From NCBI GenBank assembly GCA_934133195.1, contig CAKPAZ010000004.1, positions 3,564 through 67,563 of the forward strand: a stretch of 64,000 bases of DNA, in the 5' to 3' direction. Every line of letters begins with the position of its first letter. Position 1 is the stretch's first letter. This document shows, one piece after another, positions 5,956-29,696 of the stretch. A program made the translations under genes and the position numbers. This stretch comes from an uncultured Bacilli bacterium. Lineage in GTDB: Bacteria; Bacillota_I; Bacilli_A; ML615J-28; CAG-313. Below the pieces are notes generated by a model. It did not search any database and had not been told where the DNA came from. It saw only the letters and a list, made by a program, of their open reading frames with translations.

Positions 5956-6100
5956 ATTTCATTATGATGAATCTTAGTTCCGGATTAAAAAATCGAGATG
6001 ACGAAACTAAGTCAAGATTAAATCTTGTGCTACTCCCCTTAAGAGTACTTACCACTAGTTACTTTCATGCAATAAATAGTGGTACGAATAATAGTTTGAA
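5956..6100 (-). ncRNA. Putative yybP-ykoY (Mn2+) riboswitch aptamer in the ATPase leader
   Basis: The minus-strand leader contains cuuaaGGGGAGUAGc, the hallmark conserved loop of the yybP-ykoY family, plus a cuugacu element. It is followed by the terminator and an ATPase of the type this riboswitch commonly controls. Confidence 0.4.
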
Positions 6101-6103
6101 TAA

Positions 6104-6177
6104 TGGAGGCTCCGGCCGGATTTGAACCGGCGATCAGGGTGTTGCAGACCCACGCCTTACCGCTTGGCTACAGAGCC
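6104..6177 (-). tRNA. tRNA-Cys (anticodon GCA)
   Basis: RC reads GGCTCTGTAGCCAAGCGGTAAGGCGTGGGTCTGCAACACCCTGATCGCCGGTTCAAATCCGGCCGGAGCCTCCA. Cloverleaf with anticodon loop CTGCAAC and an encoded CCA. The ORF-track entry 6103..6294 is spurious. Confidence 0.85.
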
Positions 6178-6190
6178 ATTAGACCTAAAT

Positions 6191-6219
6191 ATTATACATT
6201 ATTTTGCACATTCAGTCAA
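6191..6219 (-). promoter_or_regulatory. Sigma-A promoter for tRNA-Cys and the ATPase leader
   Basis: Minus strand TTGACT, 17 nt, TATAAT, placing the TSS about 5 nt before the tRNA. Confidence 0.5.
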
Positions 6220-6271
6220 GTAAAATGTTATTATAATTCACAATTTACCAAAATAGAACTTCGCTATCTTC

Positions 6272-6300
6272 TTGCAAAAATATCATTTCTATGATAATAT
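6272..6300 (+). promoter_or_regulatory. Sigma-A promoter for the lipoprotein gene
   Basis: TTGCAA, 17 nt, TAATAT (with an upstream TG). Divergent from the tRNA promoter. Confidence 0.4.
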
Positions 6301-6323
6301 ATTATAAAGAAATGGAGAAAAGT

Positions 6324-8660
6324 ATGAAAAAAAGATCTTTACTAATAATTATTACTTTATTAATCACCCTATTATATTCAGGATGTAACCAAAATAAAGC
6401 AGATTTTGAAAAAATATTTCAAGAAAGTGAAAATTTAATTGAAATTCCAAGTGTTATTGATGGAAACATCACTTTACCAACAACCCTTTCAAATGGTGTA
6501 ACTATCACATGGACTTCATCTTACCCTTCCGCCCTTACTAGTGATGGTAAGGTAAGCTTTGGTAAAAATGATGTAGAAGTAACGCTTACCGCCCAACTTT
6601 CTTATAATCAAGAAATAAGAGTTAAAGAATATCAAGTTACGGTTAATTCTTTTTCCAAACACTATGAAAAACTTATAAACCAAGTACTAACTGATGCGAA
6701 TCTTCCGGAAGTAATCGATCAAAACCTAATGCTTCCAAGTAGTTTTAGTGATCTAAATATTACTTGGTACTTAAATAATGAAGAATTAAAAGATGGAATA
6801 ATTGAAATTACAAAAACCAGTGAAGATCAAACTCTTGATGTTTTAGGTATCTTTACAGATGGTGTTAATGTAATCCAAAAACATTTAACCTTTAAAGTTA
6901 AAAAACTTGAAATCTATGATTATTTAACTATTGTTAAAGAAGAAGTAAAAACAAAACTAGAAAGCTTAAAGTTTAATGAACTTCCATCTACTTTATATGA
7001 TATCATGATAACATATAGTTATACTCCAGATACTATAATTAATAGTGATGGCTCTATCAACTATCAAGATGAAGAAGTTGAACTTAATGTCATGGTTTCA
7101 TACAAATACCTTGATAAAGTTCTTTCTAATGAAGAAATTAAAGTCATAATTCCTAAAAAGACTAATGAAATGTATTTAGATGAAGCAATCAATAACTTAA
7201 CTTTACCAGCGGAAACCTCTACTAATATAACACTTCCTATGATGATAAATAATGTTTCTATTACTTGGAAGAGTAATACCCCAAGTATCATCACAAATGA
7301 AGGTATTATCACAAGAAAAGAACGTGATGGTAAATGCAAACTAACCGCGACTTTCTCATATCTTGGTACTACCAAAACTAAACAATATGAAATCAAGATT
7401 TTAAGATATACAGATAGTGAATTAATCGATTTAGCGATTAAATTATTGGAAATGCCAACTATTGTTAGTACCAATATTGAGCTTCCTGCATATATTGAAT
7501 ATGATGTCTATGTTGAATGGACATCAAGTGATGAATCAATCATGACAAATACTGGTGAAATTACTTTAAGAGATACTGATCAAACTGTAACTCTAACTGC
7601 GATTTTCACCTTAGGAGGAGCAACCAAAATGGAAAACTACATAATTAAAATTCCGGCTCGCCCTGACATTACCAAGGGTAAGCCACACCAAAGACTAATG
7701 TATGCGAAAGACTATGAAACAGAAAACATGAATAATGTAGAAGTAAAAGAAGAACGCTTAGTCTTAAAAGATGGTATGGTTGAAGGATACTATGAATCTA
7801 AAGAAATTGAAACTATCGATTTTAGTGGTCTTGTTGCATCATGGGCTGCAACTTCAAGTACTACTGCGACCGTTGAATTAATGGTAAAAGTTAAGGTAAA
7901 CAATGTATGGAGTGATTACATCACCTACCATCCTTGGGGCTTTGGCTTAAATAATGCTTGTTACGACCAAAAGAAAAGTTTAATCCGCCTTGATGAAGAT
8001 GAAGTATCAACAATCGGAGGAAATGGTAACGCTGTAATGTTTAAGGTCATCTTAAGAAGAACTGCTTCAAGTGATGCATCCCCTAAACTTACCCTTGTAT
8101 CATTTGCTTTAAAGAATGCCTCATACGCATATCCAGTTGATATTACCAACCTTCCAAAAGAGGTAATCTATGATGTTCCTCGTTTAAATCAAAACGTGGT
8201 ACCAACCATTGGTAACATCATTTGTAGTGCAACCACTTCAACCATGTTACTAAAATATAAAGGGGAAAACTTCTCACAATATGATGAGTATGAACATCGA
8301 TATATTGCGGGGAAAGTAAAAGAAAACAATACGGGAATTTACGGAAACTGGGTTTACAACACCGTTTTAATGAGTTCCTTTGGCTATACATCATATGTCG
8401 CAAGAATGTATTCAATTGAAGAATTGATGTATCATCTCGCAAACGTTGGTCCTGTAGGCTTAAGTGTTAAAGGACAAATGACATCAAGTGAAAAGAGTTA
8501 CTATACCAATGGTCACTTAATTGTTGGTATTGGTTATAAATACATTGATGGTACTTTATACATCTTATGTAATGACCCTAATGTTCCAAATGTATACTGT
8601 GAATATAGTTATACTGTAATTAAAAATACATGGCGTAACGTAAGTTATGTAATTGAATAA
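6324..8660 (+). CDS. Lipoprotein with tandem Ig-like repeats and a C-terminal papain-like (Peptidase_C39_2-like) domain
   Basis: The likely start is ATG 6324, with an RBS ggagaaaag and signal peptide plus lipobox LLYSGC. About four repeats of roughly 90 aa share an ITLP...ITWxSS...LTA pattern. The C-terminus has VPTIGNIICSATTSTMLL (Cys) ... NGHLIVGIGY (His). Confidence 0.6.
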   Translation: MKKRSLLIIITLLITLLYSGCNQNKADFEKIFQESENLIEIPSVIDGNITLPTTLSNGVTITWTSSYPSALTSDGKVSFGKNDVEVTLTAQLSYNQEIRVKEYQVTVNSFSKHYEKLINQVLTDANLPEVIDQNLMLPSSFSDLNITWYLNNEELKDGIIEITKTSEDQTLDVLGIFTDGVNVIQKHLTFKVKKLEIYDYLTIVKEEVKTKLESLKFNELPSTLYDIMITYSYTPDTIINSDGSINYQDEEVELNVMVSYKYLDKVLSNEEIKVIIPKKTNEMYLDEAINNLTLPAETSTNITLPMMINNVSITWKSNTPSIITNEGIITRKERDGKCKLTATFSYLGTTKTKQYEIKILRYTDSELIDLAIKLLEMPTIVSTNIELPAYIEYDVYVEWTSSDESIMTNTGEITLRDTDQTVTLTAIFTLGGATKMENYIIKIPARPDITKGKPHQRLMYAKDYETENMNNVEVKEERLVLKDGMVEGYYESKEIETIDFSGLVASWAATSSTTATVELMVKVKVNNVWSDYITYHPWGFGLNNACYDQKKSLIRLDEDEVSTIGGNGNAVMFKVILRRTASSDASPKLTLVSFALKNASYAYPVDITNLPKEVIYDVPRLNQNVVPTIGNIICSATTSTMLLKYKGENFSQYDEYEHRYIAGKVKENNTGIYGNWVYNTVLMSSFGYTSYVARMYSIEELMYHLANVGPVGLSVKGQMTSSEKSYYTNGHLIVGIGYKYIDGTLYILCNDPNVPNVYCEYSYTVIKNTWRNVSYVIE

Positions 8661-10169: not shown

Positions 10170-10245
10170 GCACCCTTAGCTCAGTTGGTAGAGCAACTGA
10201 CTCTTAATCAGTGGGTCCAGGGTTCGAGTCCCTGAGGGTGTACCA
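10170..10245 (+). tRNA. tRNA-Lys (anticodon CTT)
   Basis: GCACCCTTAGCTCAGTTGGTAGAGCAACTGACTCTTAATCAGTGGGTCCAGGGTTCGAGTCCCTGAGGGTGTACCA. Canonical D and T arms, anticodon loop CTCTTAA, and encoded CCA. Confidence 0.9.
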
Positions 10246-11464: not shown

Positions 11465-11678
11465 TTCTATCAAAATAGGTAATCTCATACATTTTAATTA
11501 TAACACACTATATGTTTATAGAACGTCTTTTTTTATACTGATATCAATTATGAGTAGTTGATCTAATAATCTACTTTTTTTGTTAGAATGCAATTAAAAA
11601 TGGTTGCAAATTAAAAATGCAACTTATTTTGGTTGCATTTTATTATTTGATATGATATAATAACCATGAGGTGATATT

Positions 11679-12506
11679 ATGAATACTAATTATGCCGCAA
11701 TAATTATGGATGTAATACAATCTAGAAAATACGATGAACAAGAAAGATTTAATATCCAAGAAAAATTATATAAAATAATTAAATTTATTAATAATTGTTA
11801 TAAAAATGAAATAGTTAAAGATTATGATTTTTCAGCAGGTGATTCTATCCAAGCCTTATTTAATAATGTAAGTGATGCTTTTAGTAGTTATTGTTTAATC
11901 AAAACTTTATTTTATCCATATAAAATTAGATGTGGTATCGGTTATGGACCCCTTAATCAAAAAATATTAGATGTAAATTATAACAACACTAACATGTTAG
12001 ATGGAGAAGCATATCACTATGCAATATCAGCTTTAAATGATTGTAAAGAAAAGAAATATAATTTTTTATTATATTCAAATAAAAATGAAAGTGATAATTT
12101 AGTTAATCAAATAATGAGTACAGTTGAAATCTTTACTTCAGAACATTCAACTAAACAAGCAGATGTTTTTGAACTATTTAACTTATTATATCCTTTAGAA
12201 AATAAAAATTCATTTAAAATAATTGATGAAAATATAGATTTTATCATTACAATGATAAAACAAAATATTCAATCTTATGAATTAGATGATTTAACACTGG
12301 TTAAACACGTATTATTAGATGATTTTAAGAATGATGCCAATACATCTAATTTTCCCACAAGAATAAATTCAATCTGTGCCCAGTTATTAAATGTAAGTAG
12401 ACAAAACATTGAAAAGATAAGAACTGTAGGCTTTTTTGATAAAATTAGAATACTAGAAAAATTAGTATTGGATTATATGAGAAATGAATATAAGGAGAGA
12501 GAATAG
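11679..12506 (+). CDS. SatD-like protein (tentative)
   Basis: N-terminal AAIIMDVIQSRKYDEQER resembles the IIGDIxxSR start of the SatD family. It is immediately followed by a DUF3307-like membrane protein, which is the usual SatD partner. Confidence 0.35.
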   Translation: MNTNYAAIIMDVIQSRKYDEQERFNIQEKLYKIIKFINNCYKNEIVKDYDFSAGDSIQALFNNVSDAFSSYCLIKTLFYPYKIRCGIGYGPLNQKILDVNYNNTNMLDGEAYHYAISALNDCKEKKYNFLLYSNKNESDNLVNQIMSTVEIFTSEHSTKQADVFELFNLLYPLENKNSFKIIDENIDFIITMIKQNIQSYELDDLTLVKHVLLDDFKNDANTSNFPTRINSICAQLLNVSRQNIEKIRTVGFFDKIRILEKLVLDYMRNEYKERE

Positions 12507-13235
12507 ATGACAGTATTTAAATTATTATTGATTGCTCACTTGTTTGGTGATTATTATTTCCAACCAACTTGCTTAGTTGAGAAAAAGAAGAATAGTATAA
12601 AAGAATTAATTATTCATGTTTTGATTTATACTTTATTTATTTTTCTAGTATTATTACTATTTGGTAATGTATGGGAGATTATAATTTGGTCAGTTATTGT
12701 GTTTGCAACACACTTTTTGATTGATTACATTAGAGTTAAATTAACAAAGAAATATAATGAATGTGTTTCATTTTGGAGTTTTATTGTTGATCAAATACTA
12801 CATATAGCTATAATCTTTATAATTTCATTAATTATTAAAGATGATTTGAATTCTATTGGAAGTGCTATTCACAATATTTCGTTTTTTAAAGATATTAATT
12901 TTAATAAAGTTATTACTTACTCTTTAGCATTTCTAATCATCTTAGCACCTGCGTCAGTATTTATCAAACATCTTTTTAATTATGTTTTCAATAAAAAAGG
13001 AATATGTGAAAATGTTGATTCCGATAATGTGGGATCACTAATTGGTTGGCTTGAAAGAGTAGTAATCTTACTACTTGGTATTCTTGGCATGTATGGCTCA
13101 ATTGCTTTAGTTTTAACTGCGAAGTCTCTCGCAAGATTTAAACAGTTGGAAAATAAAGAGTTTGCTGAGAAATATTTAGTGGGTACCTTAATAAGTTTAG
13201 TAATTGCCTTATTAACACTACTAATCATCAAATAA
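12507..13235 (+). CDS. DUF3307-like polytopic membrane protein (SatE-like partner)
   Basis: N-terminal HLFGDYYFQ (the HxxGDxxxQ signature). Multiple TM helices. Its start abuts the stop of the upstream gene. Confidence 0.4.
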   Translation: MTVFKLLLIAHLFGDYYFQPTCLVEKKKNSIKELIIHVLIYTLFIFLVLLLFGNVWEIIIWSVIVFATHFLIDYIRVKLTKKYNECVSFWSFIVDQILHIAIIFIISLIIKDDLNSIGSAIHNISFFKDINFNKVITYSLAFLIILAPASVFIKHLFNYVFNKKGICENVDSDNVGSLIGWLERVVILLLGILGMYGSIALVLTAKSLARFKQLENKEFAEKYLVGTLISLVIALLTLLIIK

Positions 13236-13746
13236 GATCTTAACATATAGATGGGAGATGAATAAATGATATAAAAGTTATATATGAAACTATAATTAAT
13301 AATTTTATTCGCGTAAGATAAAATGTTCAAATTCAATAAATCTATATATTTTCATATAAAATAATAATATTAAATGCCTGTGTTTTACCAATGATTATAA
13401 TTTTGGATATTTCCACATAATTAATTTAAATTTATAAGAAATGAAAAATACGATGAATATTTTGTTTTAATTTTATTACCAAGACAGATATGTCATTACA
13501 ACTGTTGTATTAACTTGTAGTAAAAAAGTAATTTTAAAATTGTTAAAAAATAATTATTAAACAGCTTTTTAAATAAGTAATATTATAAGTAAGTTTACAA
13601 GAAATATTTAATAATTAATAGAACATTAAGAAAAAAAGATTTGATTGAAATAATAGGATCTAATAAAATTGGTTATTGAAAAGTTAAAGACGTTAAAAAT
13701 AAACTAACACAATTAATAAAATAAGAAAAATAAGTAGGAGAAACAT

Positions 13747-15060
13747 ATGAAAAGAAATATATTAGAATTATACTACAATTATGAAGCAATAAATGAAAGC
13801 ATAAATTTCATTGCTCCATTAATTATAGAACGTAAAAATAAATTAAAAAGAAAACTAGATGATACCAAACAATTTTATGATATTGTTAAAAAAATTAGTG
13901 ATGTTATCAGGGAATTTAAGCCGACTGATGAACTTAATGAAAATGAAATTAAGGAAATTAATATAAAAATAACAAATAAATTATTAGATTTAGGATTAGC
14001 TACTATTAATGAAAATAATGAATTTACATTTAATATAAAGGAAGATATTGAACCGGTTAAAAATATAGATGAAGTAATAGATTCTTTAAGAGCAAGTAAT
14101 AGAAATAAAAGATTCTTATTTAATAATGCTGTTGTAAACTGTGTTACATCTTATGAACAATTTGTTGGATTTCTATTTAAAAGTTTTTATTTTCAAAATT
14201 CAAATTGTGTGTGTAAAAAAGCTTTAACATTTGAAGAATTGAAAGAAATTGGTTCAGTAGAAGAGGCAAAAAATTATTTAATTAATAGAGAAATTAAAGA
14301 TTTAATGTATGGTAGCATTGATGACTGGCAAAAACATTTCAAAAATAATATTAAAATTAAAATAAATCATTATGAAAACAACATAAAAGAAATTAATGAG
14401 ATATTTTTACGAAGAAATTTAATAGTGCATAATAGTTCAATCGTTAATTCCATTTATTTAAAGGAAATTGGAAATAGCGATTATAAAATAGATGACCCAA
14501 TAGAAAGTTCAACTGAATATATTAATAATGTTCAAAAGTTGTTGTTTGTAAACGCATTTTATTTAGGAATATTTTGTATTGATAAAATGGGTTACTCCAA
14601 GGATGAGAAACTAGAAATTGCAAATACTTTTTCTTTTATAGCATTTAATATGATGAAAAATGGAAAGTGGGAGCAAGCAAAAATAATATATTCAATAATC
14701 AAAGAATTTGAATTATTTTCTAAAGAAGTGAAAGAAATGCACAATATTAATTATTTATTATGCCGCGTTAATTTAAATGAAGATAATATTTATGAAGAAA
14801 TAGAAAAAATTGATTTTAGTGACAAATCAAATTTCTTAAAAATGGGATATTTTGCTCTAATGTTGAAAAAGGATGAATTAATTGAAACAATTAAATTAAT
14901 GGGAACTGAGGTCCGTACAGACATGATAAATGAGTGGCCAGTTTTTTTTAGAGTAAGAGAAGATAAGAAATATTATAATAAAGTTATAAAAGTAATTAAT
15001 CAAAAGCATGATGAAAATAAAGACTTGATAAAAATTAATTTAGGTGGTAATAAAAGCTAA
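13747..15060 (+). CDS. Hypothetical protein with a HEPN-like RNxxxH motif (Abi-like)
   Basis: 437 aa. Contains FLRRNLIVHNSS (Rx4-6H, as in AbiD/F, AbiU2 and LsoA-type HEPN RNases). RBS aggaga. Confidence 0.35.
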   Translation: MKRNILELYYNYEAINESINFIAPLIIERKNKLKRKLDDTKQFYDIVKKISDVIREFKPTDELNENEIKEINIKITNKLLDLGLATINENNEFTFNIKEDIEPVKNIDEVIDSLRASNRNKRFLFNNAVVNCVTSYEQFVGFLFKSFYFQNSNCVCKKALTFEELKEIGSVEEAKNYLINREIKDLMYGSIDDWQKHFKNNIKIKINHYENNIKEINEIFLRRNLIVHNSSIVNSIYLKEIGNSDYKIDDPIESSTEYINNVQKLLFVNAFYLGIFCIDKMGYSKDEKLEIANTFSFIAFNMMKNGKWEQAKIIYSIIKEFELFSKEVKEMHNINYLLCRVNLNEDNIYEEIEKIDFSDKSNFLKMGYFALMLKKDELIETIKLMGTEVRTDMINEWPVFFRVREDKKYYNKVIKVINQKHDENKDLIKINLGGNKS

Positions 15061-15123
15061 AAATTAGTAAAAAAGTATCTAATATATATAGCTTTGAAAA
15101 ATTAAAAACTTGGGAGAAAAAAT

Positions 15124-15684
15124 ATGATTGAAATAGAAGAATTTGAATACCTATCAAAAAAATATACACCTTATATTAATAGTTTGATTGAGAAAAATAA
15201 AAAGTTTTATAAATTGAACTCACCTATAAAATGGCAATTCGGTTTTAATGAAAAATTAGCTTTTTTTGCATGGTCAGATAAAAATACTAATTTGATTACA
15301 CTAAACATTGCATCTGTTGATTATTCAATTCAAAATAATCAAAATTTATTAGTTGAGTTGTTTTTATTACACGAAATGAGACATGTATATCAATATCAGG
15401 AAGCTGAATTATATATTAGTAATCCTTTGATATGTGAAAACATAGAAATGGCTAAAAAATGGTATTACGAATTTCAAGAATATGTTCCCGCTTCAGATAA
15501 TAATAAAAATTTTAACTATTATTTACAGGAATCGGAAAAAGATGCATTTGTTTATTCCTATGCAATAATTATGTATAAGTATGGAAAAGTAGAATACTTA
15601 AATATTCCAAAAGCATATGAAGGACCTAAAATTAAAAAAGAAATTAATAATTTAATGGTCATGTTCAAAAATAAAAAACTATAG
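15124..15684 (+). CDS. Small zincin-like metallopeptidase (HExxH)
   Basis: LLHEMRHVYQ HExxH motif, with a downstream Glu (YLQESEKDAF) as a possible third ligand. 186 aa. RBS ggagaaaa. Confidence 0.45.
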   Translation: MIEIEEFEYLSKKYTPYINSLIEKNKKFYKLNSPIKWQFGFNEKLAFFAWSDKNTNLITLNIASVDYSIQNNQNLLVELFLLHEMRHVYQYQEAELYISNPLICENIEMAKKWYYEFQEYVPASDNNKNFNYYLQESEKDAFVYSYAIIMYKYGKVEYLNIPKAYEGPKIKKEINNLMVMFKNKKL

Positions 15685-15827
15685 TGTTAATAGTTAAGAA
15701 TATGACATTACTTATAATGTTGTACAAACAATTTACTGTAATAATAAAATTTAATAAATATATTTAGTTTAATAATGAAATTTAACAATCATAAATCTAT
15801 TATTAAATTACAATATTTTAAGAAAGG

Positions 15828-17165
15828 ATGAGAAATTTGGAACATAATAATAACAATATTTATTTTATAGATAAATTATTAGAGGATAATTTTTACTCAA
15901 AAATAGTTGATAATTATATTCCTTGTATTATTGAAAAAGGAAATCTTCAGGATAATAATAGTGATTTATATATAAAAACTATTTTAGCATCTCAAACGAA
16001 GGATATAGAAAAAACATGGATGATTAACAATTTAGTACACTCTGCATCAAACGATGTATTTAATTGTATAGTTAGTTATAATTATAAATTCAATACGCTA
16101 TATGGAATTAATCCATTTCTTATGGATGATTATAGTACTGTGTTTGTAGAACAGAAAAATTTATATGTTTTGGATATGGTATATAATGATTCTGGAACAA
16201 TAAATAAACCTGCTATATTGAAAAATGAAAATAATAATATTTACATTTATTATGACGTTTTAAAAGAAAAACTTCAAAAAAATGCATTTTCTAATAACTA
16301 TAAAATGTATGCAGAAATAGAATATAGAGAATATGTAGATCAATTTTATATGAATAAACAAATCGAAAAGATTAATAATGGATATATTGACGTACAATGT
16401 TTTAAAGAAGATGATGGTAAGAACATCTTATGGATACGAGCAACCATTGAAATTGATGTTGATCGTTTACTAGATAAAATATGCACAAAAAGAAAATTCG
16501 AAAATTTAAATATTAAAGTTGTAGAGTTAGAAAGCGGTAAAATTAGAGATCTAAATACTAATAATTATGATGATGATATTAGTGCTGGACTCATTGTATT
16601 TAAGAAAGAGGCATATCAAGTATTATCAAAATATTATTATTTTTATGATATGATGTTAGTATCGAAAAACAATGAATTAGATTTATGTTTAATTGATAAT
16701 CTAGAAGATTGTTTTGTGTTTTGGGAAGGAGAATTCAATAGCAAGATACCTATTGAAATAAAAAGAGAATTAGCAAAATACAACGATAAAAATAGAAAGG
16801 TAGGAATAATTAGTAAAGGAATGTATGAATGGCAATTGAATGCTAATTGGAACTATATAGATGATGCATTACCTAATGAAAAATTAGCTAGTTACATTAG
16901 AAATAACTATTTAGCACAAGCTTTGGAAATTGGGTTAGATTTTTACCCTCCGAAAAGTAATGAAGAATATGGTGATTTTGTTAATTTAATATTTAAAATA
17001 CTTAAAATTTCATATAAAGATTTAAAAATTTCAAATGAAAAAATAGAATTATTAGAAAAAATAAGAAATAAGTCTGAAGTTTTTGCAAATCAAGATTTAT
17101 TATATAAAAACTACCAAGGTTTTTGTAATCTAATTAATAGGGTTGTTGAAAATGCAAATAACTAG
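15828..17165 (+). CDS. Hypothetical 445-aa protein, translationally coupled to the downstream OLD-like nuclease
   Basis: RBS aaaggatgag. Its 3' end overlaps the next ORF by 23 nt. No known motif. Confidence 0.5.
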   Translation: MRNLEHNNNNIYFIDKLLEDNFYSKIVDNYIPCIIEKGNLQDNNSDLYIKTILASQTKDIEKTWMINNLVHSASNDVFNCIVSYNYKFNTLYGINPFLMDDYSTVFVEQKNLYVLDMVYNDSGTINKPAILKNENNNIYIYYDVLKEKLQKNAFSNNYKMYAEIEYREYVDQFYMNKQIEKINNGYIDVQCFKEDDGKNILWIRATIEIDVDRLLDKICTKRKFENLNIKVVELESGKIRDLNTNNYDDDISAGLIVFKKEAYQVLSKYYYFYDMMLVSKNNELDLCLIDNLEDCFVFWEGEFNSKIPIEIKRELAKYNDKNRKVGIISKGMYEWQLNANWNYIDDALPNEKLASYIRNNYLAQALEIGLDFYPPKSNEEYGDFVNLIFKILKISYKDLKISNEKIELLEKIRNKSEVFANQDLLYKNYQGFCNLINRVVENANN

Positions 17166-18426
17166 AGATGAATTCTTGAATAGTATTAAAACATCTAACT
17201 CTTCGTTATTTTGTATAGTTGGCCCTAATTATTCTGGAAAAACATATTTATTAAAAAATTTTTTTGAAAACTATATCACAATTGGTGGATTACTTATAGA
17301 TGAAACAGGTAAAGTAAGAAGAAAAGTTGCTACTGACGAAATTTTTATTTCAAGTGACAATAATTATTATATTTATCAGGATAAAAAGCAAAGAGGTAAA
17401 GATCATACTGCTAATGGCTCAAAAGTTGCACTTGATGAAGCATCAAAGGAAATAATAAAGGTTGTAAAAAAATACAAAGATAGAATTATCAATTTTTTAC
17501 AAAATGGAAAGCCTGAATCTCTTGGGATATCAAAAATAATGAATATAATAAATATTTTATTATCAACTAACTTAAACAATATATCCTATGTTATTATTGA
17601 TGAACCTGAAAATTCATTAGATGATAATAATCTTAAAATAGTGATAGAATTTATAAACACATTAATTTTATTCAAAAAGAAAGTAGTAATTGTTACTCAT
17701 AGTCCAAGATTACTTGAGCTAATGAAAGTAGAAGTTGATAATATATATAAAGTTAATGATCTAATGGGAAAAATACAAAATTTAAAGTTTACAGATGTTG
17801 AAAAGATCTATATTGATTGTGGTAGTGAATTAAAAGAAGTACCTGGCTATAAAAGCCTTTATATTTCTGATATAATTCAATTCAACGCTGGCGAAATTTT
17901 TCGTAATTTATATATTAATTACGTTCTAAAATCACAAGATTTTTATAGGGTATTATTCTACAATGATGTAGTATTAATGGAAGGCAAAACTGAAGAATTT
18001 ATTATTAGAGAGACAAAATATTCAAAAAAATACTCAAAAAATGTGTATTATATGGAGGGAAAATATAAAGCTTATTTTTTAATTGAGTTGTTTAGTAATT
18101 ATTGTAATCAAGTTAATTGTTTTATGGATAGGGATAAAAAAAGCAAACTAGATGATAATAATAATTTTTCTTATCAAATGAATGATACTTTTAAAAGAAA
18201 ATACAATAATAATTTAAAAGTCAAAATTTTTTACTTCAATAATAATATTGAAGATGAACTTGGTGTTGACATAAATGAGGTAATGATAGATTTTGTGGGT
18301 GAAGAAAATAAAAATAATAAACGATGCAAAAAAAATTTAAAACCATTTATTTCATTGAGGTACTTACAAAAACATCCAGAATGCATCGAAAATCTTGATT
18401 CACTAACAAATGAATTTAATTTTTAA
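17143..18426 (+). CDS. Compact OLD-family protein: ABC-type ATPase fused to a TOPRIM nuclease
   Basis: Walker A GPNYSGKT, signature-like SLGISKIM, Walker B YVIIDEPENSLDD and H-loop VTHSP. C-terminal TOPRIM VVLMEGKTEE ... FMDRDKK (E plus DxD). Confidence 0.6.
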   Translation: MLKMQITRDEFLNSIKTSNSSLFCIVGPNYSGKTYLLKNFFENYITIGGLLIDETGKVRRKVATDEIFISSDNNYYIYQDKKQRGKDHTANGSKVALDEASKEIIKVVKKYKDRIINFLQNGKPESLGISKIMNIINILLSTNLNNISYVIIDEPENSLDDNNLKIVIEFINTLILFKKKVVIVTHSPRLLELMKVEVDNIYKVNDLMGKIQNLKFTDVEKIYIDCGSELKEVPGYKSLYISDIIQFNAGEIFRNLYINYVLKSQDFYRVLFYNDVVLMEGKTEEFIIRETKYSKKYSKNVYYMEGKYKAYFLIELFSNYCNQVNCFMDRDKKSKLDDNNNFSYQMNDTFKRKYNNNLKVKIFYFNNNIEDELGVDINEVMIDFVGEENKNNKRCKKNLKPFISLRYLQKHPECIENLDSLTNEFNF

Positions 18427-18884: not shown

Positions 18885-19189
18885 CGTTATTACTTACCAT
18901 AACTCTTTTTTTACCATAAAAGCACAAAAGCATAAAATATTTTATAGAACCATTAAACCTCATAAGTAAATAAGGTGATTCATTAAGGCTTTTTTAATAC
19001 ATCCGATAACTCATTTTATAGTGTAATTTTCCAAATATTGTAAAATTTGAAATATTAATTATTATGGCATAAGATAATTTGTTAAAAATAGCAAAATCTT
19101 GCAATAATTTATGTATTATGATAAAATTTTATATGAACATATCAAAAAATATATTCACTTTAAAAAATTTTATTATAGGAGCGAGAAAA

Positions 19190-20083
19190 ATGACAATAAA
19201 ATTTGAATCTTTTTTTAAATTTGAACATCCAGAAAAAATTAAAGTTAAATTTAATATGACATCTGGTCGTGGTGGTGATAGAGCGTGGGACAATTTACGA
19301 GATGATGATGGAAATTATCAACGTAATGATAATAAGTGGTATAATATGAATGCTCATAGAAGTGAAACAGGACAATCAAACAACAATCTTGAACATTATG
19401 AATATGTTTTATCCTTTGCACAATATTATCCATATGGCCATGAATTTTATATATTTGGTGGATTATATAAAAAAACGGGTATTAGAAGTAATGACAAATA
19501 TGAATTAGAGTTACAAGATGACTATATAGAATATAGAAACAGATTAATTATTAAGTTAGAAAAATCAATTGGAAGAAATCTTTATTTAGTAAAGTTTAAA
19601 ACTGTGTGTAACAAAATGAATGCTGTCATTTATGAGATCAGACCAGAAGGAAAACTTTCAGTTTTTCCAGGATATAATAATGTTAGATTAACGCATAAAG
19701 AACTACAAAGTATTATCAATGGTAAGGAGATGGAATGGAAAAATGCATTGTCAGTGGTAAAAGGCGTTTACTGTATAACTGATACTTCAACAGGAAAAAT
19801 CTACATAGGCTCAGCTTATGGTAATACCAATGGTATATGGCAACGATGGTCATCATATGCTAATATTAAAAATCTCACAGGTGGTAATAAATATTTTGAA
19901 TTACTAAAAAAAGAATGTGAATCATACATTATTGACAACTTTCAATATTCAATTTTAGAAATCATGGATTTTAAGACGGATAAGAATGAAATTATTCGAA
20001 GAGAAGAGTATTGGAAAAAAGTATTCAAAAGCGTAGAATATGGAATGAATGAAGCTAGAAAAAATGTTGATGAATATTTATAA
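19190..20083 (+). CDS. GIY-YIG nuclease-domain protein with an unknown N-terminal domain
   Basis: The likely start is ATG 19190, with an RBS aggagcgag. The C-terminus has GVYCITDTSTGKIYIGSAYG...WQRWSSY...NKYFELL...E...EEYW, the GIY-YIG motifs. Confidence 0.6.
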   Translation: MTIKFESFFKFEHPEKIKVKFNMTSGRGGDRAWDNLRDDDGNYQRNDNKWYNMNAHRSETGQSNNNLEHYEYVLSFAQYYPYGHEFYIFGGLYKKTGIRSNDKYELELQDDYIEYRNRLIIKLEKSIGRNLYLVKFKTVCNKMNAVIYEIRPEGKLSVFPGYNNVRLTHKELQSIINGKEMEWKNALSVVKGVYCITDTSTGKIYIGSAYGNTNGIWQRWSSYANIKNLTGGNKYFELLKKECESYIIDNFQYSILEIMDFKTDKNEIIRREEYWKKVFKSVEYGMNEARKNVDEYL

Positions 20084-20111
20084 TTATTAAAATATAAATA
20101 CTAATTATTCA

Positions 20112-20146
20112 AAAGACCTTCACAGGAAAGGCCTTTTATTTTTAAA
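20112..20146 (+). terminator. Probable terminator
   Basis: aaagaccttcacaggaaaggcctttt followed by ATTTTT. Confidence 0.4.
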
Positions 20147-20316
20147 TATTTGTAATATTTTTTAAAATAAAAACATTCGTTATATAAAAAATAAATAAAA
20201 GTATTAAAAGAAAATTGAAATTAACATAATATTAGATAGATATAATTTGAATTTTTTAAAATTATATGATAAAATCATATCATAAAAATAAAATGTATAA
20301 ATGAGGATTGAGAATT

Positions 20317-21336
20317 ATGAATGAAAAAATTATGAAAGCACTAGAAGCATGTAATAAAGTTTTAGAGGGCTTGGAAAATGAAACTCTTTCTATTTCATCT
20401 GCTTTAATGTTATGCTTGAAAATTGCTAGACTTACAAATGATGAAAATAATTTAAGTTGGTTAATGTATGAAAGTAGCGGTTATGCTAAAATTGATAATG
20501 ATAATCTTTTGCCAGAAGCTTTTGAAATCGCAAAAAAGCATGGAAGAAATTATATAATAGATGACAAAGAGTATGTGTTTACTGAATTAGTTCCAGAACT
20601 AGAATCAAAGATTGAATGTGCAAAAATGCAAACTAATAACTTTACAACTAATGGTGCATCTACCTCTGGTAATTATGCTATGGGAGCGATGCACAGATTA
20701 ACTGAATCTGTTGCTTCGGAAAATAAAAAATTGTTAACTATAATGACTAGTTCGAGAAAAAAATTAATGATATTAGCAAGCCAATTTTATGATTATGCAC
20801 TAAAAAAATCTATTGAAATAACATTTGGGAACGTTTCGCAAACGATTTTTGAATCTTATAGAGAAACTGTTAATGGATACTTAAATGATGTTTCAAAAGA
20901 TACACTAATGAAATTGCAAGCAATTGATGAAGGATTGCAAACTAACAATAAAGAAACGTATTCACAAATTTTAACTACATGCAGAAGATTATTTCAAGAA
21001 TTGGTAAAAAATTTATTCAAAAGAGTTTTGCCTGAGTTCCAAGACGATCAGTTTAAAACTAAAAGTGGTAAATTCATAGATGTAAGTGGTGAACACTACA
21101 AAAATAAACTTTCAGCAATAATTGAGACTTTGGAAGACAAAACATTAAATAAATCACTTGTTGGTACTAGCATATTATATTACATGGACTGGATTGATAA
21201 CTTAACTTCACTTCAATCCAAAGGAGTACATAATGATATTTCTCTAGAAGAAGCAAGAAGTTGTATTATTCAAACTTACATTTTTGCTGGTGAAATCATT
21301 AAGTTATATGAAAACAATTTTAAAAATATTGATTGA
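20317..21336 (+). CDS. Hypothetical protein (340 aa)
   Basis: ATG 20317 with gagg 10 nt upstream. The ORF track used TTG 20308. No motif recognised. Confidence 0.5.
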   Translation: MNEKIMKALEACNKVLEGLENETLSISSALMLCLKIARLTNDENNLSWLMYESSGYAKIDNDNLLPEAFEIAKKHGRNYIIDDKEYVFTELVPELESKIECAKMQTNNFTTNGASTSGNYAMGAMHRLTESVASENKKLLTIMTSSRKKLMILASQFYDYALKKSIEITFGNVSQTIFESYRETVNGYLNDVSKDTLMKLQAIDEGLQTNNKETYSQILTTCRRLFQELVKNLFKRVLPEFQDDQFKTKSGKFIDVSGEHYKNKLSAIIETLEDKTLNKSLVGTSILYYMDWIDNLTSLQSKGVHNDISLEEARSCIIQTYIFAGEIIKLYENNFKNID

Positions 21337-21396
21337 ATGATATATTGATTAAATAAATATTGTTTTTTATAAATTTATTACAAATAGAGGAACTAT

Positions 21397-22599
21397 ATGG
21401 ATAAACTTTTTAAATTTATTTTAGAGAACTATAACGATGGAAGCGAAAAAGTAGATAAAACTACTGAATTATATAATATTTTAATTAAAAAACTTCCAAA
21501 TAAAATAGAATATACCTTGGGCATAACAGATCTTATTGTTAAAGGATCCATGGGACAAGGAAATAAAACCCAATATCCTTGGATTGCTATAATGGATAAG
21601 AGTATTACTCAATCAACACAATATGGCTTGTACATGGTATACTTATTTAAAAGAGATATGAGCGGATTCTATTTATCTCTTAATCAAGGTATTACTTTTT
21701 TTGAAAAAGAATACGGCAAACAAAGATATACTAATGCAGCTCTTGTTGCAGATTATTTTAGAAGTCAAATTGGAGAAACATCTTTTTCAAAAAATGAAAT
21801 TGACATAACATGTGGTGATAAATCCAAGTCTTTAGGATATGGATATCAGAAAACTAATATTATTTCTAAATATTATCCCATTGATAAATTAGATGAGCAG
21901 ATGTTAGTTAAAGACTTATTTGAACTATTTCATATTTATGATGAAATACTTCAACATATTAGTACCACATCATACGATAGCATTATTAAGGACATATTGA
22001 TAGAAGAAGAAAAGTCTTTTGTAGATGTAGATACCGCAGTGTATGAAATAAAAAAAGTATTAGATCAATATGATAATTTACCTGCAGGGTTACATAGAAC
22101 ATTAATAGAAGAAGAACCAACAGTTAAGCTATCAAAGAAATATGAAAGAATTACAAAGCCAAAAACAACTAAGATTGATTATATAAATAAAGCCAGAAAA
22201 GATGCAGAAGTTGGACTTTTGGGTGAAGAATTAGTTATTAGTTATGAAAAACAAAGATTAATAGATCTAAATTTAAATGATTACGCTGAAAAAATTAAAT
22301 GGATATCTAAAGAATCTGATTTGTATGGATATGATATTGAATCATTCGATATGGATGAAAATGGTAATATTTTTTCTATTAAGATAGAAGTAAAAACAAC
22401 TGCTTCTAGAGCAGATACTGAATTTTTTGTTTCCAAAAATGAACTTGAAGTATCGAAAGAATATCAAAAAAAATACTTTATATATAGAGTATATGATGCT
22501 AAAGGATTAATGCCTAAGTTTTATAGAGTTGCAGGATGTATATCAGATAATTTTATTTTAGATCCTGTTACCTTTATGGCAAGGTATAAATATAGATAA
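21397..22599 (+). CDS. Putative modification-dependent (type IV-like) restriction enzyme: MrcB-N-like DNA-binding domain plus C-terminal PD-(D/E)xK (DUF3883-like) nuclease
   Basis: N-terminal LIVKGSMGQGNKTQYPWIAIMD resembles the MrcB_N (DUF3578) core. C-terminal YDIESFD...IKIEVKTT...FFVSKNELE...YFIYRV fits D...(D/E)xK. Confidence 0.45.
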   Translation: MDKLFKFILENYNDGSEKVDKTTELYNILIKKLPNKIEYTLGITDLIVKGSMGQGNKTQYPWIAIMDKSITQSTQYGLYMVYLFKRDMSGFYLSLNQGITFFEKEYGKQRYTNAALVADYFRSQIGETSFSKNEIDITCGDKSKSLGYGYQKTNIISKYYPIDKLDEQMLVKDLFELFHIYDEILQHISTTSYDSIIKDILIEEEKSFVDVDTAVYEIKKVLDQYDNLPAGLHRTLIEEEPTVKLSKKYERITKPKTTKIDYINKARKDAEVGLLGEELVISYEKQRLIDLNLNDYAEKIKWISKESDLYGYDIESFDMDENGNIFSIKIEVKTTASRADTEFFVSKNELEVSKEYQKKYFIYRVYDAKGLMPKFYRVAGCISDNFILDPVTFMARYKYR

Positions 22600-22865
22600 A
22601 AAATTTAAAATAAACTAGTAGAATATGTTTGTAAAAAAATGAATAAGCGATAAAACAGAAATTTAAAAATATGACGATATTATAGAGATTACTTACATTG
22701 ATTATTTGCTAAATAATCATTTTAAATTTTTAAAAATTCAAGCGTTTAACACCATTGAAATTATCATATGATTTTAACATTCACAGCTACGACAAATATG
22801 GAAAAATAAACAATAACAAAGCGAACAGTATAAAAGTATGAATAAAAATAATTAAGGAGTAGAAT

Positions 22866-25178
22866 ATGACAGAAGAAGAAGTAAAACTAAATTATATAAC
22901 ACCCGCGATTGAACATGCAGGATGGAAAAAAAGCCAAATTAGAATGGAATATTCAATAAATGATGGGAAAATAATTATTAGAGAAAATGTCACAAAAAGG
23001 TTGCCAAAGAAAAAAGCTGATTATGTTTTATTCTATAAAACAGATTTACCACTAGCAATAGTAGAAGCAAAAGATGATAAACATGTAGTTGGTGATGGAA
23101 TGTTACAAGCTCAAGAGTATGCAAAAAAATTAGATGTTAGATTTGTTTTTACATCTAATGGTAATGGATTTTTATTTTATGATATGAAAACTGGAGAACA
23201 AAAGATATATAACTTAGATGATTTTCCTTCCCCTGAAACTTTGTATAAAATTCAGTTTGAAGAAGAGTTTAAAAAGAATAAAAATTTAGAAAAAATCATT
23301 GATACACCATATTATTATGGAGTTGAATCACTTACACCCAGATATTATCAGCGTATTGCAATAAATAGAACTGTTGAGGCAATTGCAAAAGGTAGCGAGA
23401 GAATTTTACTTGTTATGGCTACTGGGACAGGAAAAACATACATGGCTTTTCAGATTATTTGGAGGCTTTGGAAATCTGGCCTTAAAAAGAAAATTTTATA
23501 TCTTGCAGATAGAAATATTTTAATAGATCAGACAATAATCGGTGATTTTAAACCATTTAAAAATTTTATGACTAAAATTTTTCATAAAAAGATGGATACA
23601 TCATATGAAATATATTTGTCACTTTACCAACAACTTTCTGAAAATGAGACGGATGATACATTAGCTTTATTAAAAGAAAATTTTAATTCGGATTTTTTTG
23701 ATTTAATAATAGTCGATGAATGTCATAGAGGTAGTGCTAGAGAAGACTCAAATTGGAGAAAAATATTAGATTATTTTGATAAAGCAAGTAAAATCGGTAT
23801 GACAGCAACCCCTAAAGAAACTAGAGAAATATCAAATATTGATTATTTTGGTGAACCAATTTATACATACTCTTTAAAAGATGGTATTGAAGATGGATTT
23901 CTTGCCCCTTATAGGGTAATCAGATACGCCCTAGATACTGATATATATGGGTATAGACCTGAAAAAGGTAAACTTGATATTGATGGAAATATTGTTGATG
24001 ATAGAGAGTATAATATAAATGATTTTGATAAAAATCTTATAATTGACGAAAGAACTCAATTAGTTGCCAAAAAAATTACGGAATTTCTTAAAAGCACCGA
24101 TCGATTTGCAAAAACAATTGTATTTTGCGTGGATGTAGACCATGCTGAAAGAATGAGACAAGCACTAGTTGAACTTAATTCAGATCTTTGTGCTGAAGAT
24201 CATAGATATATAGTTCGTATCACTGGTGATAATGAAGAAGGAAAAAAACAACTTGATTATTTTATTGATAATGATAGTATTTATCCAACTATAGTTACAA
24301 CCAGTAAATTATTAACGACTGGAGTAAATTGCCAAACATGTAAAATTATTGTTTTAGATAACATATTTGGTGAAAATGGAATGACGGAATTTAAACAAAT
24401 TATTGGTAGAGGTACAAGAATCAAAGAAGATTATGGTAAATTATATTTTACAATTTTAGACTTTAGAAATGCTACAAGATTATTTGCTGATCCAACTTTT
24501 AATGGTCCAGAAGAACAAGTAGAAGATTATGATCCAAATAGATTAAAAAAAATTAAAAATAAAAATATAATAGAATCTGATGAAGAAGAAAATAATGAGA
24601 TAAATAATAATACAAATGTAAAAAAAATTAGAGTTAACAATGTTGATGTAATGCTTATTGCAGAAAGAGTTCAATATTATGATTGTGATGGTAAACTAAT
24701 AACAGAAAACTTAAAAGATTACACGAGAAAAAATATTTTACACGATTATGCATCTTTGAGTGATTTCTTAAATTTATGGAATAGTGAAAAAAAGCGAGAA
24801 GTCATTATAGAAGAACTTAATACTAAAGGTATTTTTATAGAAGAACTTAGAAAATTTTATCCGACTGATGTAGATGATTTCGATTTAATATGTGATATAG
24901 CATATGGATTAAAACCACTGACAAGAAAAGATAGAATTAAACGTTCTAAGGTTGTAGATATATTAAATAGATATTCTGAGGAATGCAAAAAAGTTCTTGA
25001 GATTATTCTTGAAAAATATTCAAATGATGAAATTGATGAATTAACGGATTCAAAAATTTTAAAATTACCTGACTTTAACGATTATGGTAATCCCATGAAA
25101 ATTGCAAATTTATTTGGAGGGCGTAATAATTATTTAAATGCAGTTCGTCAAATACAAAATGCACTATATGTAGCGTAA
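22866..25178 (+). CDS. hsdR: Type I restriction enzyme R subunit
   Basis: HsdR_N start MTEEEVKLNYITPAIEHAGW, Walker A MATGTGKT, DEAH box IVDECHRGSA, and a helicase C-terminal domain. Confidence 0.9.
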   Translation: MTEEEVKLNYITPAIEHAGWKKSQIRMEYSINDGKIIIRENVTKRLPKKKADYVLFYKTDLPLAIVEAKDDKHVVGDGMLQAQEYAKKLDVRFVFTSNGNGFLFYDMKTGEQKIYNLDDFPSPETLYKIQFEEEFKKNKNLEKIIDTPYYYGVESLTPRYYQRIAINRTVEAIAKGSERILLVMATGTGKTYMAFQIIWRLWKSGLKKKILYLADRNILIDQTIIGDFKPFKNFMTKIFHKKMDTSYEIYLSLYQQLSENETDDTLALLKENFNSDFFDLIIVDECHRGSAREDSNWRKILDYFDKASKIGMTATPKETREISNIDYFGEPIYTYSLKDGIEDGFLAPYRVIRYALDTDIYGYRPEKGKLDIDGNIVDDREYNINDFDKNLIIDERTQLVAKKITEFLKSTDRFAKTIVFCVDVDHAERMRQALVELNSDLCAEDHRYIVRITGDNEEGKKQLDYFIDNDSIYPTIVTTSKLLTTGVNCQTCKIIVLDNIFGENGMTEFKQIIGRGTRIKEDYGKLYFTILDFRNATRLFADPTFNGPEEQVEDYDPNRLKKIKNKNIIESDEEENNEINNNTNVKKIRVNNVDVMLIAERVQYYDCDGKLITENLKDYTRKNILHDYASLSDFLNLWNSEKKREVIIEELNTKGIFIEELRKFYPTDVDDFDLICDIAYGLKPLTRKDRIKRSKVVDILNRYSEECKKVLEIILEKYSNDEIDELTDSKILKLPDFNDYGNPMKIANLFGGRNNYLNAVRQIQNALYVA

Positions 25179-25193
25179 AGGAGGATTAAAATT

Positions 25194-26663
25194 ATGGCAG
25201 TTACAAATTTAGTAAAAAGAATACAAGATATTATGAGAAATGACGCTGGCGTTGATGGTGATGCACAACGAATTAGTCAAATGACGTGGATGTTTTTCTT
25301 AAAAGTTTATGATGCTAAGGAAGAAGAATGGGAATTTTATGATGAAAATTATCAAAGTTTAATTCCTAATGAGCTAAAATGGAGAAATTGGGCAATAGAT
25401 GACCATAGTAATAATGTAATTACCGGTGAAAAACTATTAGATTTAGTTAATAATAAACTATTTCCTACTTTAAAAAATCTTGAGATAACCCCAGAAACAC
25501 CGCTAAAGCAACGCATTGCAAAATATGTTTTCGAAGATGCACAAAATTATATGAAAGATGGTGTTTTACTTAGACAGGTAATTAATGTAATAAATGAAGT
25601 TGATTTTTCTGAATATAAAGAAAGACATGAATTTGGTGCAATTTATGAAACAATTTTAAAAAGCTTACAAAGTGCTGGAAATGCTGGTGAATTTTATACG
25701 CCGCGTGCTGTTACAGATTTTATGGTTCAGATGATAAAGCCAAAACTTGGTGAGTCTGTCGCAGATTTTGCATGTGGTACAGGTGGATTTTTAACTTCAA
25801 CTTTAAAATATCTTGAGCCACAAAAAAAATCTACAGAGGATGTTGACAAATATAACAACACAATTTATGGAATTGAAAAAAAGCCAATGCCTTATTTACT
25901 TTGTATAACAAATATGTTAATACATGATGTTGATGAACCTAAAATTTATCACATGAATTCCTTAGAAAAAAATGTAAGAGATTACAAAGAAGAAGATAAA
26001 TTTGATATTATTTTAATGAATCCACCTTACGGAGGATCAGAAAAAGAAGCTGTTAAGAATAATTTTCCTGCAGATTTAAGAAGTAGTGAAACAGCAGATT
26101 TATTCATGAATGTTATCATGTATCGTTTAAAGAAAAATGGTCGTTGTGCTGTAATTATTCCAGATGGCTTTCTATTTGGAGAAGATAACGCAAAAGTTGC
26201 TATTAAGAAGAAACTATTAAATGAATTTAATTTACACACAATCATAAGAATGCCACATAGTGTTTTTGCTCCGTATACTTCCATAACGACTAATATATTA
26301 TTTTTTGATAATACTAAATCAACTGATGAAACATGGATATATCGTATGGACATGCCTGAGGGATATAAAAATTTTTCAAAAAATAAACCTATAATGCTAG
26401 AACATTTTGCTCCTGCTATTGAATGGTGGAATAATAGAAAAGAATTAATAATTGACGAATTTCCTAAAGCAAAGAAATATACAAAAGAAGATATTATAAA
26501 ATTAAATTATAATTTAGATTTATGTGGTTATCCACATATTGAAGAAGAAATTTTAGAACCAAAAGATTTAATCCATCAATTTAAAGAGCGAAGAGATTCT
26601 TATAACGCGGAGATTGAGAGAACACTGGCAAAAATATTGGAGATTTTAGATGAAGACAATTAA
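25194..26663 (+). CDS. hsdM: Type I R-M N6-adenine DNA methyltransferase M subunit
   Basis: HsdM_N (RISQMTWMFFLKV), SAM-binding DFACGTGGFL, and catalytic NPPYGG. Confidence 0.9.
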   Translation: MAVTNLVKRIQDIMRNDAGVDGDAQRISQMTWMFFLKVYDAKEEEWEFYDENYQSLIPNELKWRNWAIDDHSNNVITGEKLLDLVNNKLFPTLKNLEITPETPLKQRIAKYVFEDAQNYMKDGVLLRQVINVINEVDFSEYKERHEFGAIYETILKSLQSAGNAGEFYTPRAVTDFMVQMIKPKLGESVADFACGTGGFLTSTLKYLEPQKKSTEDVDKYNNTIYGIEKKPMPYLLCITNMLIHDVDEPKIYHMNSLEKNVRDYKEEDKFDIILMNPPYGGSEKEAVKNNFPADLRSSETADLFMNVIMYRLKKNGRCAVIIPDGFLFGEDNAKVAIKKKLLNEFNLHTIIRMPHSVFAPYTSITTNILFFDNTKSTDETWIYRMDMPEGYKNFSKNKPIMLEHFAPAIEWWNNRKELIIDEFPKAKKYTKEDIIKLNYNLDLCGYPHIEEEILEPKDLIHQFKERRDSYNAEIERTLAKILEILDEDN

Positions 26664-28794: not shown

Positions 28795-28822
28795 TGAATT
28801 TAAGTGTTCATTGAAGTCTTTT
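28782..28822. terminator. Hairpin terminator downstream of the recombinase gene
   Basis: aaaagacttcaatgaa-ttta-agtgttcattgaagtcttttt. Confidence 0.5.
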
Positions 28823-28825
28823 TGA

Positions 28826-29629: not shown

Positions 29630-29696
29630 TAATTTTACCTCCTTATGGACGATAAAATTATATCATTTAATTATTAATTTTCTTTTTATGAACACA

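Follow-up and report, generated by a model that had tools for sequence, protein, structure and literature searches.

Representatives of the RiboL-PSP-HEPN family (Pfam PF18735) retain the Rx4-6H motif and are distant kin of AbiD/F, and within HEPN proteins both TPR fusions and solo Abi forms are found repeatedly (Anantharaman et al. 2013, PMC3710099). Proteins AbiD and AbiF (Abi_2) of Lactococcus are single polypeptides in which an additional domain accompanies the RNxxxH-type HEPN domain, and they are encoded in defence islands without an antitoxin gene. In HEPN-MNT and other HEPN toxin–antitoxin pairs, the gene of the HEPN RNase lies beside a small gene on the same strand. Small soluble zincins are represented by minigluzincins (selecase and projannalysin of Methanocaldococcus) and by SprT/Wss1; HExxH proteases encoded among defence genes are represented by ImmA/IrrE/CapP (M78, COG2856), paired with Xre-type repressors, and by Lit (peptidase U49), a zincin that provides abortive infection as a single gene. 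The stretch of 64,000 nucleotides (nt) analysed here, referred to as the window, belongs to contig CAKPAZ010000004.1 of an uncultured Bacilli bacterium and contains adjacent genes for a HEPN protein of 437 amino acids (aa) and a zincin of 186 aa. The preliminary description of this locus regarded them as a possible protease-gated abortive-infection module; the distribution of their homologues suggests instead that they are probably two single-gene cassettes, independent of each other, that adjoin in a defence island linked to a tRNA gene.

Loci of the zincin family were surveyed in 32 species genomes and 45 metagenome contigs (77 in all), found with a narrower alignment, since the broad alignments were too divergent; some relatives may be missed by the degenerate-pattern prefilter of such locus searches. 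None of these 77 loci, all outside the lineage of the window, carries a homologue of this HEPN gene according to BLASTP and hmmsearch with the HEPN profile against 2,565 open reading frames (ORFs); matches to the profile are confined to the window lineage and to the loci L001, L002 and L009, containing HEPN homologues. The zincin gene is absent from all five loci of HEPN homologues, the protein identities of which are 72%, 28% and 21%. Zincins about 80–99% identical to one another at the protein level follow different, unrelated systems. Accordingly, conservation of the pairing was not observed outside one lineage, and the genes of the proposed dedicated HEPN-zincin module are not co-inherited elsewhere.

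The borders of DNA homology are consistent with this distribution. Sister-strain contigs obtained from human gut metagenomes retain the block SatD-DUF3307-HEPN-zincin, and their homology with the window extends from position 11587 to 15683, ending at the zincin stop codon; the slot beyond this codon is occupied by at least three different cassettes. At the locus of the HEPN homologue with 72% identity (L001), DNA common with the window comprises positions 13717–15016 only, i.e. the HEPN gene alone, which indicates that this gene moves as its own cassette. A gene with an FRG domain is located upstream of the HEPN gene in L001. Between species, DNA homology of zincin loci is limited to the zincin gene and about 30–40 nt on each side. 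The homology breakpoints, together with the variable neighbours, thus suggest that each of the two genes behaves as a cassette of its own.

Several points weigh against such independence. The adjacency of the HEPN and zincin genes is kept in all of approximately 28 contigs of the window lineage (24 + 4), and the subfamily to which the window zincin belongs (at least 92% identity) was found only in this lineage, always directly 3' of the HEPN gene and on the same strand. In the 63-nt spacer no terminator-like hairpin was found, and promoter-like matches are at background, being no commoner there than in shuffled AT-rich sequence; co-transcription of the two genes is possible, as is their lineage-specific functional coupling. 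The sample of HEPN homologues is small, comprising five sequences beyond the near-identical ones, and the contig of L001 ends 129 nt after the HEPN gene; no zincin start is present in these 129 nt, whereas the zincin gene of the window starts 64 nt after the HEPN stop codon. In the model of the HEPN domain, the predicted local distance difference test score (pLDDT) is below 50, too low for the HEPN fold to be modelled. Finally, tight adjoining of the zincin gene to defence operons in other genomes could mean cooperation with the neighbour.

The co-orientation, the short spacer and the linkage within the lineage would also be expected for a dedicated two-gene abortive-infection module, in which the zincin activates or neutralizes the HEPN protein by cleavage or acts as its antitoxin. 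The lack of any other partner agrees with this explanation: no MNT or helix-turn-helix (HTH) partner gene and no small HTH ORF was found beside the HEPN and zincin genes, as the preliminary description had noted for HTH partners. Such a pair, if real, would represent a new kind of protease-gated RNase defence. However, its restriction to one lineage, HEPN homologues without zincin, the 77 zincin loci without HEPN, the breakpoints that mark each gene as a separate cassette and the zincins of about 80–99% identity behind unrelated systems argue against it, and a dedicated module is considered quite improbable. Adjacency, a common strand and a short spacer within a defence island should not be taken as evidence of a system. 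In comparison with HEPN-MNT pairs, the window contains likewise a HEPN RNase gene beside a small gene on the same strand, but this pairing lacks conservation, and the neighbour encodes a zincin in place of a nucleotidyltransferase or RnlB-type antitoxin.

Genes located directly 5' of the zincin gene in other genomes include GajA-GajB, HamA-HamB, LmuA-x-LmuB, a type II restriction enzyme, HipA (HipA_C) and an esterase-like gene. The arrangement HamA-HamB-zincin was found in 5 species genomes and 7 metagenome contigs, and GajA-GajB-zincin in 1 species genome and 4 metagenome contigs. In four species the zincin gene lies directly 5' of PDC-S41, and the gene order in locus L020 is HTH-zincin-PDC-S41. 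The zincin gene overlaps by 4 nt with GajB in L015 and with PDC-S41 in L022; elsewhere, overlaps or gaps of 12–80 nt are present. PADLOC v2 does not include the repeated placement of the zincin behind defence systems, nor was a description of it met with in the literature searched; this placement is the more interesting lead.

This recurrence in many species, on the same strand and with short gaps or overlaps, behind complete systems or in front of PDC-S41, as well as the gene order of L020, would be consistent with a promiscuous accessory of whichever effector adjoins: a proteolytic regulator, a sensor of the trigger or a guard against phage inhibitors. Its role would resemble that of CapP-type or ImmA/IrrE-type proteases without an HTH partner, and the HEPN-zincin pair would then be one instance of a general principle of protease add-ons. 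However, Gabija, Hachiman and Lamassu are known to function without any such zincin gene. Neighbours unrelated to defence were also found, namely an esterase-like gene, FtsH, a leucine-rich repeat (LRR) surface protein, a VirB4-like ATPase and a convergent serine recombinase; homology is limited to the zincin gene itself, and its weak Pfam matches are to DUF6782, BSP and SprT-like, not to M78. The accessory role is therefore judged unlikely.

In loci L033, L034 and L041 (also L010 and L031), the zincin gene is located at the edge of elements containing a large serine recombinase and a Rep-like gene; in the small Rep-carrying elements, the recombinase converges on the zincin gene at a distance of 4–5 nt. 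In L064–L066 the zincin gene follows the VirB4-like ATPase gene. Among viral structures (BFVD), the fold neighbours of the zincin include IrrE-like, SprT-like and polyvalent-protein peptidases of phages, all of them weak. Polyvalent proteins encoded by phages and conjugative elements are described as containing zincin domains (PMC5512222). The zincin could accordingly be cargo of mobile elements, directed against host defences or aiding establishment, like the metallopeptidase domains of ArdC and polyvalent proteins; it would then be unconnected with host defence. However, relatives of the zincin were not found in IMG/VR viral contigs, GenBank phages or PLSDB plasmids, and the window and many other loci are chromosomal defence islands in which the gene is co-oriented with defence genes; this explanation appears very improbable.

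The preferred reading of two independent cassettes leaves the zincin family as an unnamed, fairly widespread family of gut Clostridia and Bacilli, represented by a sharply bounded one-gene cassette, and as a concrete candidate, open to testing, for a new gene with a role in defence, in counter-defence or as an accessory. It may tentatively be suggested, as a rather speculative possibility, that the family is an undescribed self-mobile gene of defence islands, either a new single-gene anti-phage protease or a plug-in proteolytic accessory joined to the 3' end of diverse effectors, namely Gabija, Hachiman, Lamassu, PDC-S41 and, in the window, the HEPN RNase.

Several further observations were made on the zincin loci. 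The zincin gene occupies positions of about 5001–5567 or 6001–6567 in most of L015–L026 and L047–L069, from many species of gut Clostridia. A conserved 3' flank, AGTGYAGCTATTTCGTAT, follows the zincin stop codon, and an inverted copy of it is present 18 nt further on in L026. The zincin as the anchor gene of a single chromosomal hotspot was rejected, since both flanks vary between species. A protein of 136 aa with the sequence KRNYWCHECY, containing RNxxxH, is encoded 15–23 nt 3' of the zincin gene in two species, at L028:6562–6972 and L030:1671–2081; it may be a mini-HEPN in a second, reversed zincin-HEPN adjacency, but neither the Pfam and PDB searches nor a comparison with the HEPN profile by hhalign gave a match. 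Two other candidates for HEPN relatives were discarded: the 320-aa gene product encoded 5' of the zincin in L013 was negative against the HEPN profile, and the AbiD/F-like protein in L040 gave no alignment.

The 437-aa protein matches the PF18735 profile, HEPN_RiboL-PSP, with 30.8 bits (curated cut-off of 28.4) and an E value of 3.3e-7, and a match to the same family is precomputed for its homologues P0001 and P0002. The loose Rx4-6H pattern occurs about 0.6 times per 437 aa across the ORFs of the window, which is not above chance; the motif calls were validated by the Pfam score and by conservation in homologues. The stricter patterns RNxxxH and HExxH were each found once in the 18,501 residues of the window ORFs. 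Residues E218, R222, R223, N224, L225, V227 and H228 are invariant in six of six HEPN homologues, down to an identity of 20%, so that the RRNLxVH motif is retained throughout and its loss was not seen in any homologue. The segment FLRRNLIVHNSS, corresponding to residues 220–231 (nt 14404–14439), spans RRNLIVH. Accordingly, the RNxxxH-type HEPN motif recognized in the preliminary description is borne out, and the protein is, judging from its sequence, a genuine HEPN protein of the AbiD/F-related RiboL-PSP family. The gene is under purifying selection, with a ratio of nonsynonymous to synonymous substitutions (dN/dS) of 0.08 in comparison with sister strain L003; for the zincin gene, also under purifying selection, the value in comparison with a sister strain is 0.40. 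Ribosome-binding sites AGGAGA/GGGAGA precede both ORFs.

The HEPN protein consists of an N-terminal helical region, the HEPN domain and a C-terminal domain of helical repeats. The AlphaFold model, built from four sequences only, has an overall pLDDT of 56; residues 99–283, including the HEPN domain, for which a four-helix up-and-down alpha bundle is expected, are helical by DSSP, but with pLDDT below 50 this part is too unreliable for fold comparison. The C-terminal residues 285–430 form the only acceptable part of the model (pLDDT of 70–90), and the top PDB matches of this part in Foldseek are all TPR proteins, although weak (E values of 0.2–1). No Pfam family matches the C-terminal domain, in which residues N335, D356, S358, W397, P398 and R404 are kept as far as the Nostoc homologues. 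The domain is probably TPR-like, and its role is presumed to be that of a sensor or regulator. A PDB sequence search with the HEPN profile returned only noise, and nothing meaningful was found in PADLOC, NCBIfam and PHROGs for the HEPN protein or for the zincin.

Similar to the RiboL-PSP-HEPN family, the window protein scores above the profile cut-off, carries an Rx4-6H motif of the RN type, is predicted to be all-alpha and occurs in a context of defence and restriction–modification genes. It differs in the N-terminal helical region and the TPR-like C-terminus, and in that neither a fusion with endoRNase L-PSP nor a ParB neighbour was found at the window gene; these form the typical context of the family, not a requirement. 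Like AbiD and AbiF, it combines an RNxxxH-type HEPN domain and an additional domain in one polypeptide, encoded in a defence island without an antitoxin gene, and it likely works like these proteins; however, no match to Abi_2 in Pfam or to the Abi models of PADLOC was obtained at E values up to 1, and the kinship follows from a statement in the literature (PMC3710099). No sign of an RNA antitoxin was seen in the 510-nt region 5' of the HEPN gene, as no Rfam match and no stable fold (z-score of 0.5) were detected; no small HTH ORF is present in this region. A weak AT-rich tandem repeat of 23–26 nt (2.6 copies, 77% matches) is located 5' of the HEPN gene, at positions 13521–13585.

This branch of HEPN proteins is extremely rare. 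A search of 5.8 billion proteins yielded a 99% copy, one homologue with 72% identity and two with 28% (four clusters), and tblastn against plasmids added two genes of Nostoc, with identities of about 20–22%. The HEPN profile detected no relatives in 185,579 species genomes, metagenome contigs of the Joint Genome Institute (JGI) or IMG/VR, in searches of loci with a degenerate-pattern prefilter that may miss relatives, as it did not return P0003 and P0005, homologues present in JGI data. Phage records likewise yielded no relative. The Nostoc plasmid homologues (L094:4722–5984 and L095:4728–5984) retain the whole architecture without zincin; the combination of a HEPN domain and helical repeats is thus common to gut Firmicutes and Nostoc plasmids within a very rare AbiD/F-related RiboL-PSP branch. 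In Nostoc, the HEPN gene is found among overlapping genes in the order TaqI-like methylase/specificity protein, 183-aa protein, HEPN and a helicase-related protein of 1,100 aa, which looks like an operon of HEPN linked to restriction–modification. In L002 and L009, with homologues of 28% identity, the zincin gene is absent; the HEPN gene is followed by a conserved ORF of 36 aa, beyond which lies an integrase gene or a different gene encoded on the other strand. This ORF, MNTI[EK]KDKNKELE...KILNLIN (L002:1657–1767 and L009:7398–7508), starts 11 nt after the HEPN gene and is not present in the window; it is possibly a small partner or antitoxin of the 28%-identity branch.

The zincin family comprises 89 clusters at 50% identity, according to exhaustive HMMER searches of 1.84 billion representative proteins, and most members are stand-alone proteins of 175–195 aa. 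In 48 aligned members, the HExxH motif is present in 44; H83, E84, R86, H87 and E138 are conserved in at least 90%, N61, Q90 and A141 are invariant, and D140, invariant in the nine closest sequences, is the majority residue. Two signatures, hEhFhLHEhRHxaQ and YYxQxxExDAxAF, characterize the family. The AlphaFold model of the zincin is confident (pLDDT of 96.2, predicted template modelling score of 0.92) and begins with a helix and three strands, which precede the helix with HExxH; the zincin fold in general has a mixed sheet, an active-site helix and a lower helical subdomain. E138, located on the helix of residues 136–153, would be the third zinc ligand. Family conservation and the zincin-like model thus agree with the earlier recognition of HEMRH and a downstream glutamate as a minimal gluzincin, and a stand-alone minimal zincin of an unnamed family of approximately 190 aa is a fair description of the 186-aa protein, for which the term 'minimal gluzincin' is apt.

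No Pfam model reaches its own cut-off for the window zincin; the match to SprT-like has an E value of 0.15 and 12.4 bits, below the cut-off of 25.6 bits. Among the 48 relatives, DUF6782 is touched by six (best E value of 1.6e-7), BSP by five and Peptidase_M78 by one (E value of 0.035). The family is related to DUF6782, BSP and SprT-like, is a member of none of these and is distinct from every curated model. Variants were found among P0011, P0077 and P0086, one with a C-terminal fusion to a GNAT acetyltransferase and several with a C-terminal zinc-binding SEC-C motif; GNAT genes also recur as neighbours of the zincin gene.

A PDB sequence search with the single zincin gave only noise, and the fold neighbours found in PDB by Foldseek are weak and nearly all zincins: selecase and projannalysin, followed by IrrE, Wss1 and MATCAP; for PDB and viral matches together, E values are at least 0.04. 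Minigluzincins are the best PDB matches both by profile and by fold, the family profile aligning with selecase across the N-terminal subdomain and HExxH helix at an E value of 0.007. The window protein resembles the minigluzincins and SprT/Wss1 in being a small soluble zincin, modelled with a helix at the N-terminus, a sheet of three strands and HExxH on a helix; in contrast to minigluzincins, the matches to which are weak (Foldseek E value of at least 0.16), it is about 80 residues longer and has C-terminal helices of its own with ExDA, as well as the family signature HExRHxxQ. Common features with ImmA/IrrE/CapP are HExxH followed by the acidic E-x-[ED]-A-x-x-F and occurrence in defence islands and beside recombinases, and IrrE is among the weak fold matches. 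However, no HTH repressor adjoins the window zincin, and zincin genes are convergent with the recombinase rather than arranged in the operon order immR-immA-int. Lit is likewise a stand-alone HExxH protease among defence genes, and thus offers a possible model of defence by a lone zincin, but no sequence or profile similarity was found, and it represents an analogy only.

Under the preferred reading of independent cassettes in an uncultured low-G+C gut bacterium, the position of the zincin after the HEPN gene would reflect the packing of cassettes and no dedicated partnership. The HEPN protein may reasonably be regarded as a candidate abortive-infection system of one gene and would act as a solo effector of that type, most likely in the manner of AbiD/AbiF. 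The TPR-like domain may keep the enzyme inactive or sense a phage cue; on triggering, HEPN domains would pair, with the Rx4H motifs forming the RNase site, and cutting of RNA would stop growth or phage production. RNase activity typical of the HEPN superfamily is metal-independent and depends on the R and H of the motif. The zincin family would be a cassette of about 0.6 kb that travels among gut Firmicutes, in their variable regions and defence islands and on integrative or conjugative elements. The window zincin is presumably an active metallopeptidase with its own target, which may be a phage or host protein, as in the case of Lit, or a defence protein if the gene serves counter-defence.

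Table 1. Features of the HEPN and zincin genes and of the left edge of the defence island (positions in the window)
Feature	Position	Strand	Evidence
HEPN gene, 437 aa	13747..15060	+	ORF and ribosome-binding site; Pfam PF18735 match; dN/dS
Zincin gene, 186 aa, stand-alone minimal gluzincin-like metallopeptidase	15124..15684	+	ORF and ribosome-binding site; family of 89 clusters; AlphaFold
Intergenic spacer HEPN-zincin, 63 nt	15061..15123	+	
HEPN domain, residues 107–241	14065..14469	+	PF18735 profile positions 10–171 of 191
RRNLIVH, Rx4-6H catalytic motif, residues 222–228	14410..14430	+	Invariant in homologues
C-terminal helical-repeat (probably TPR-like) domain, residues about 255–432	14509..15042	+	pLDDT, weak Foldseek matches, conserved residues
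HEMRH zinc-binding/catalytic motif, zincin residues 83–87	15370..15384	+	Family conservation
QESEKDA motif, zincin residues 135–141, includes E138	15526..15546	+	Family conservation
tRNA gene, left edge of defence island	10170..10242	+	Rfam tRNA, 72 bits

A dense defence island follows the tRNA gene, with island genes from position 10661 onwards. It is represented by genes of DUF4238, SatD and DUF3307, the HEPN protein, the zincin, a protein of 445 aa, an ATPase, UzuA, AbiTii, MrcB_N/NOV_C and a type I restriction–modification system. The SatD-family gene abuts the gene of the DUF3307 membrane protein (11679–13235); this pair is kept together with the HEPN and zincin genes in all sister-strain contigs and is absent beside the HEPN homologue with 72% identity.

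The direct repeat ATATGWCATTAC-N(2-8)-TGTTGTA was found in the 64 kb of the window only at positions 13488–13509 and 15700–15724, 5' of the HEPN gene and of the 445-aa gene, respectively. It was rejected as a cassette boundary of the HEPN-zincin pair, as sister strains with a different downstream cassette retain the pair but lack the second copy; the repeat may serve as a promoter or operator common to both genes, or mark a junction between cassettes.

At positions 15828–18426, the gene of the 445-aa protein, which has no family match, overlaps by 23 nt with the gene of the 427-aa ATPase. The latter contains an AAA_21 ATPase and an OLD-like TOPRIM and weakly matches PtuA, AriA and GajA; the two genes possibly form a two-gene system. 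In sister strains they are replaced by the gene of an 832-aa AAA_21 protein, followed by genes for a reverse transcriptase and a PRTase-CE protein. Further downstream, at 19079–33043, are genes for UzuA (PADLOC E value of 1e-47), an AbiTii-domain protein and MrcB_N/NOV_C, then hsdR, hsdM and hsdS, and an AAA_21 ATPase gene. A gene of a tyrosine recombinase (integrase) is located at 28826–29629 on the minus strand and a second hsdS at 30170–31366 on the opposite strand; the combination of hsdS, recombinase and inverted hsdS looks like a phase-variable specificity shufflon.

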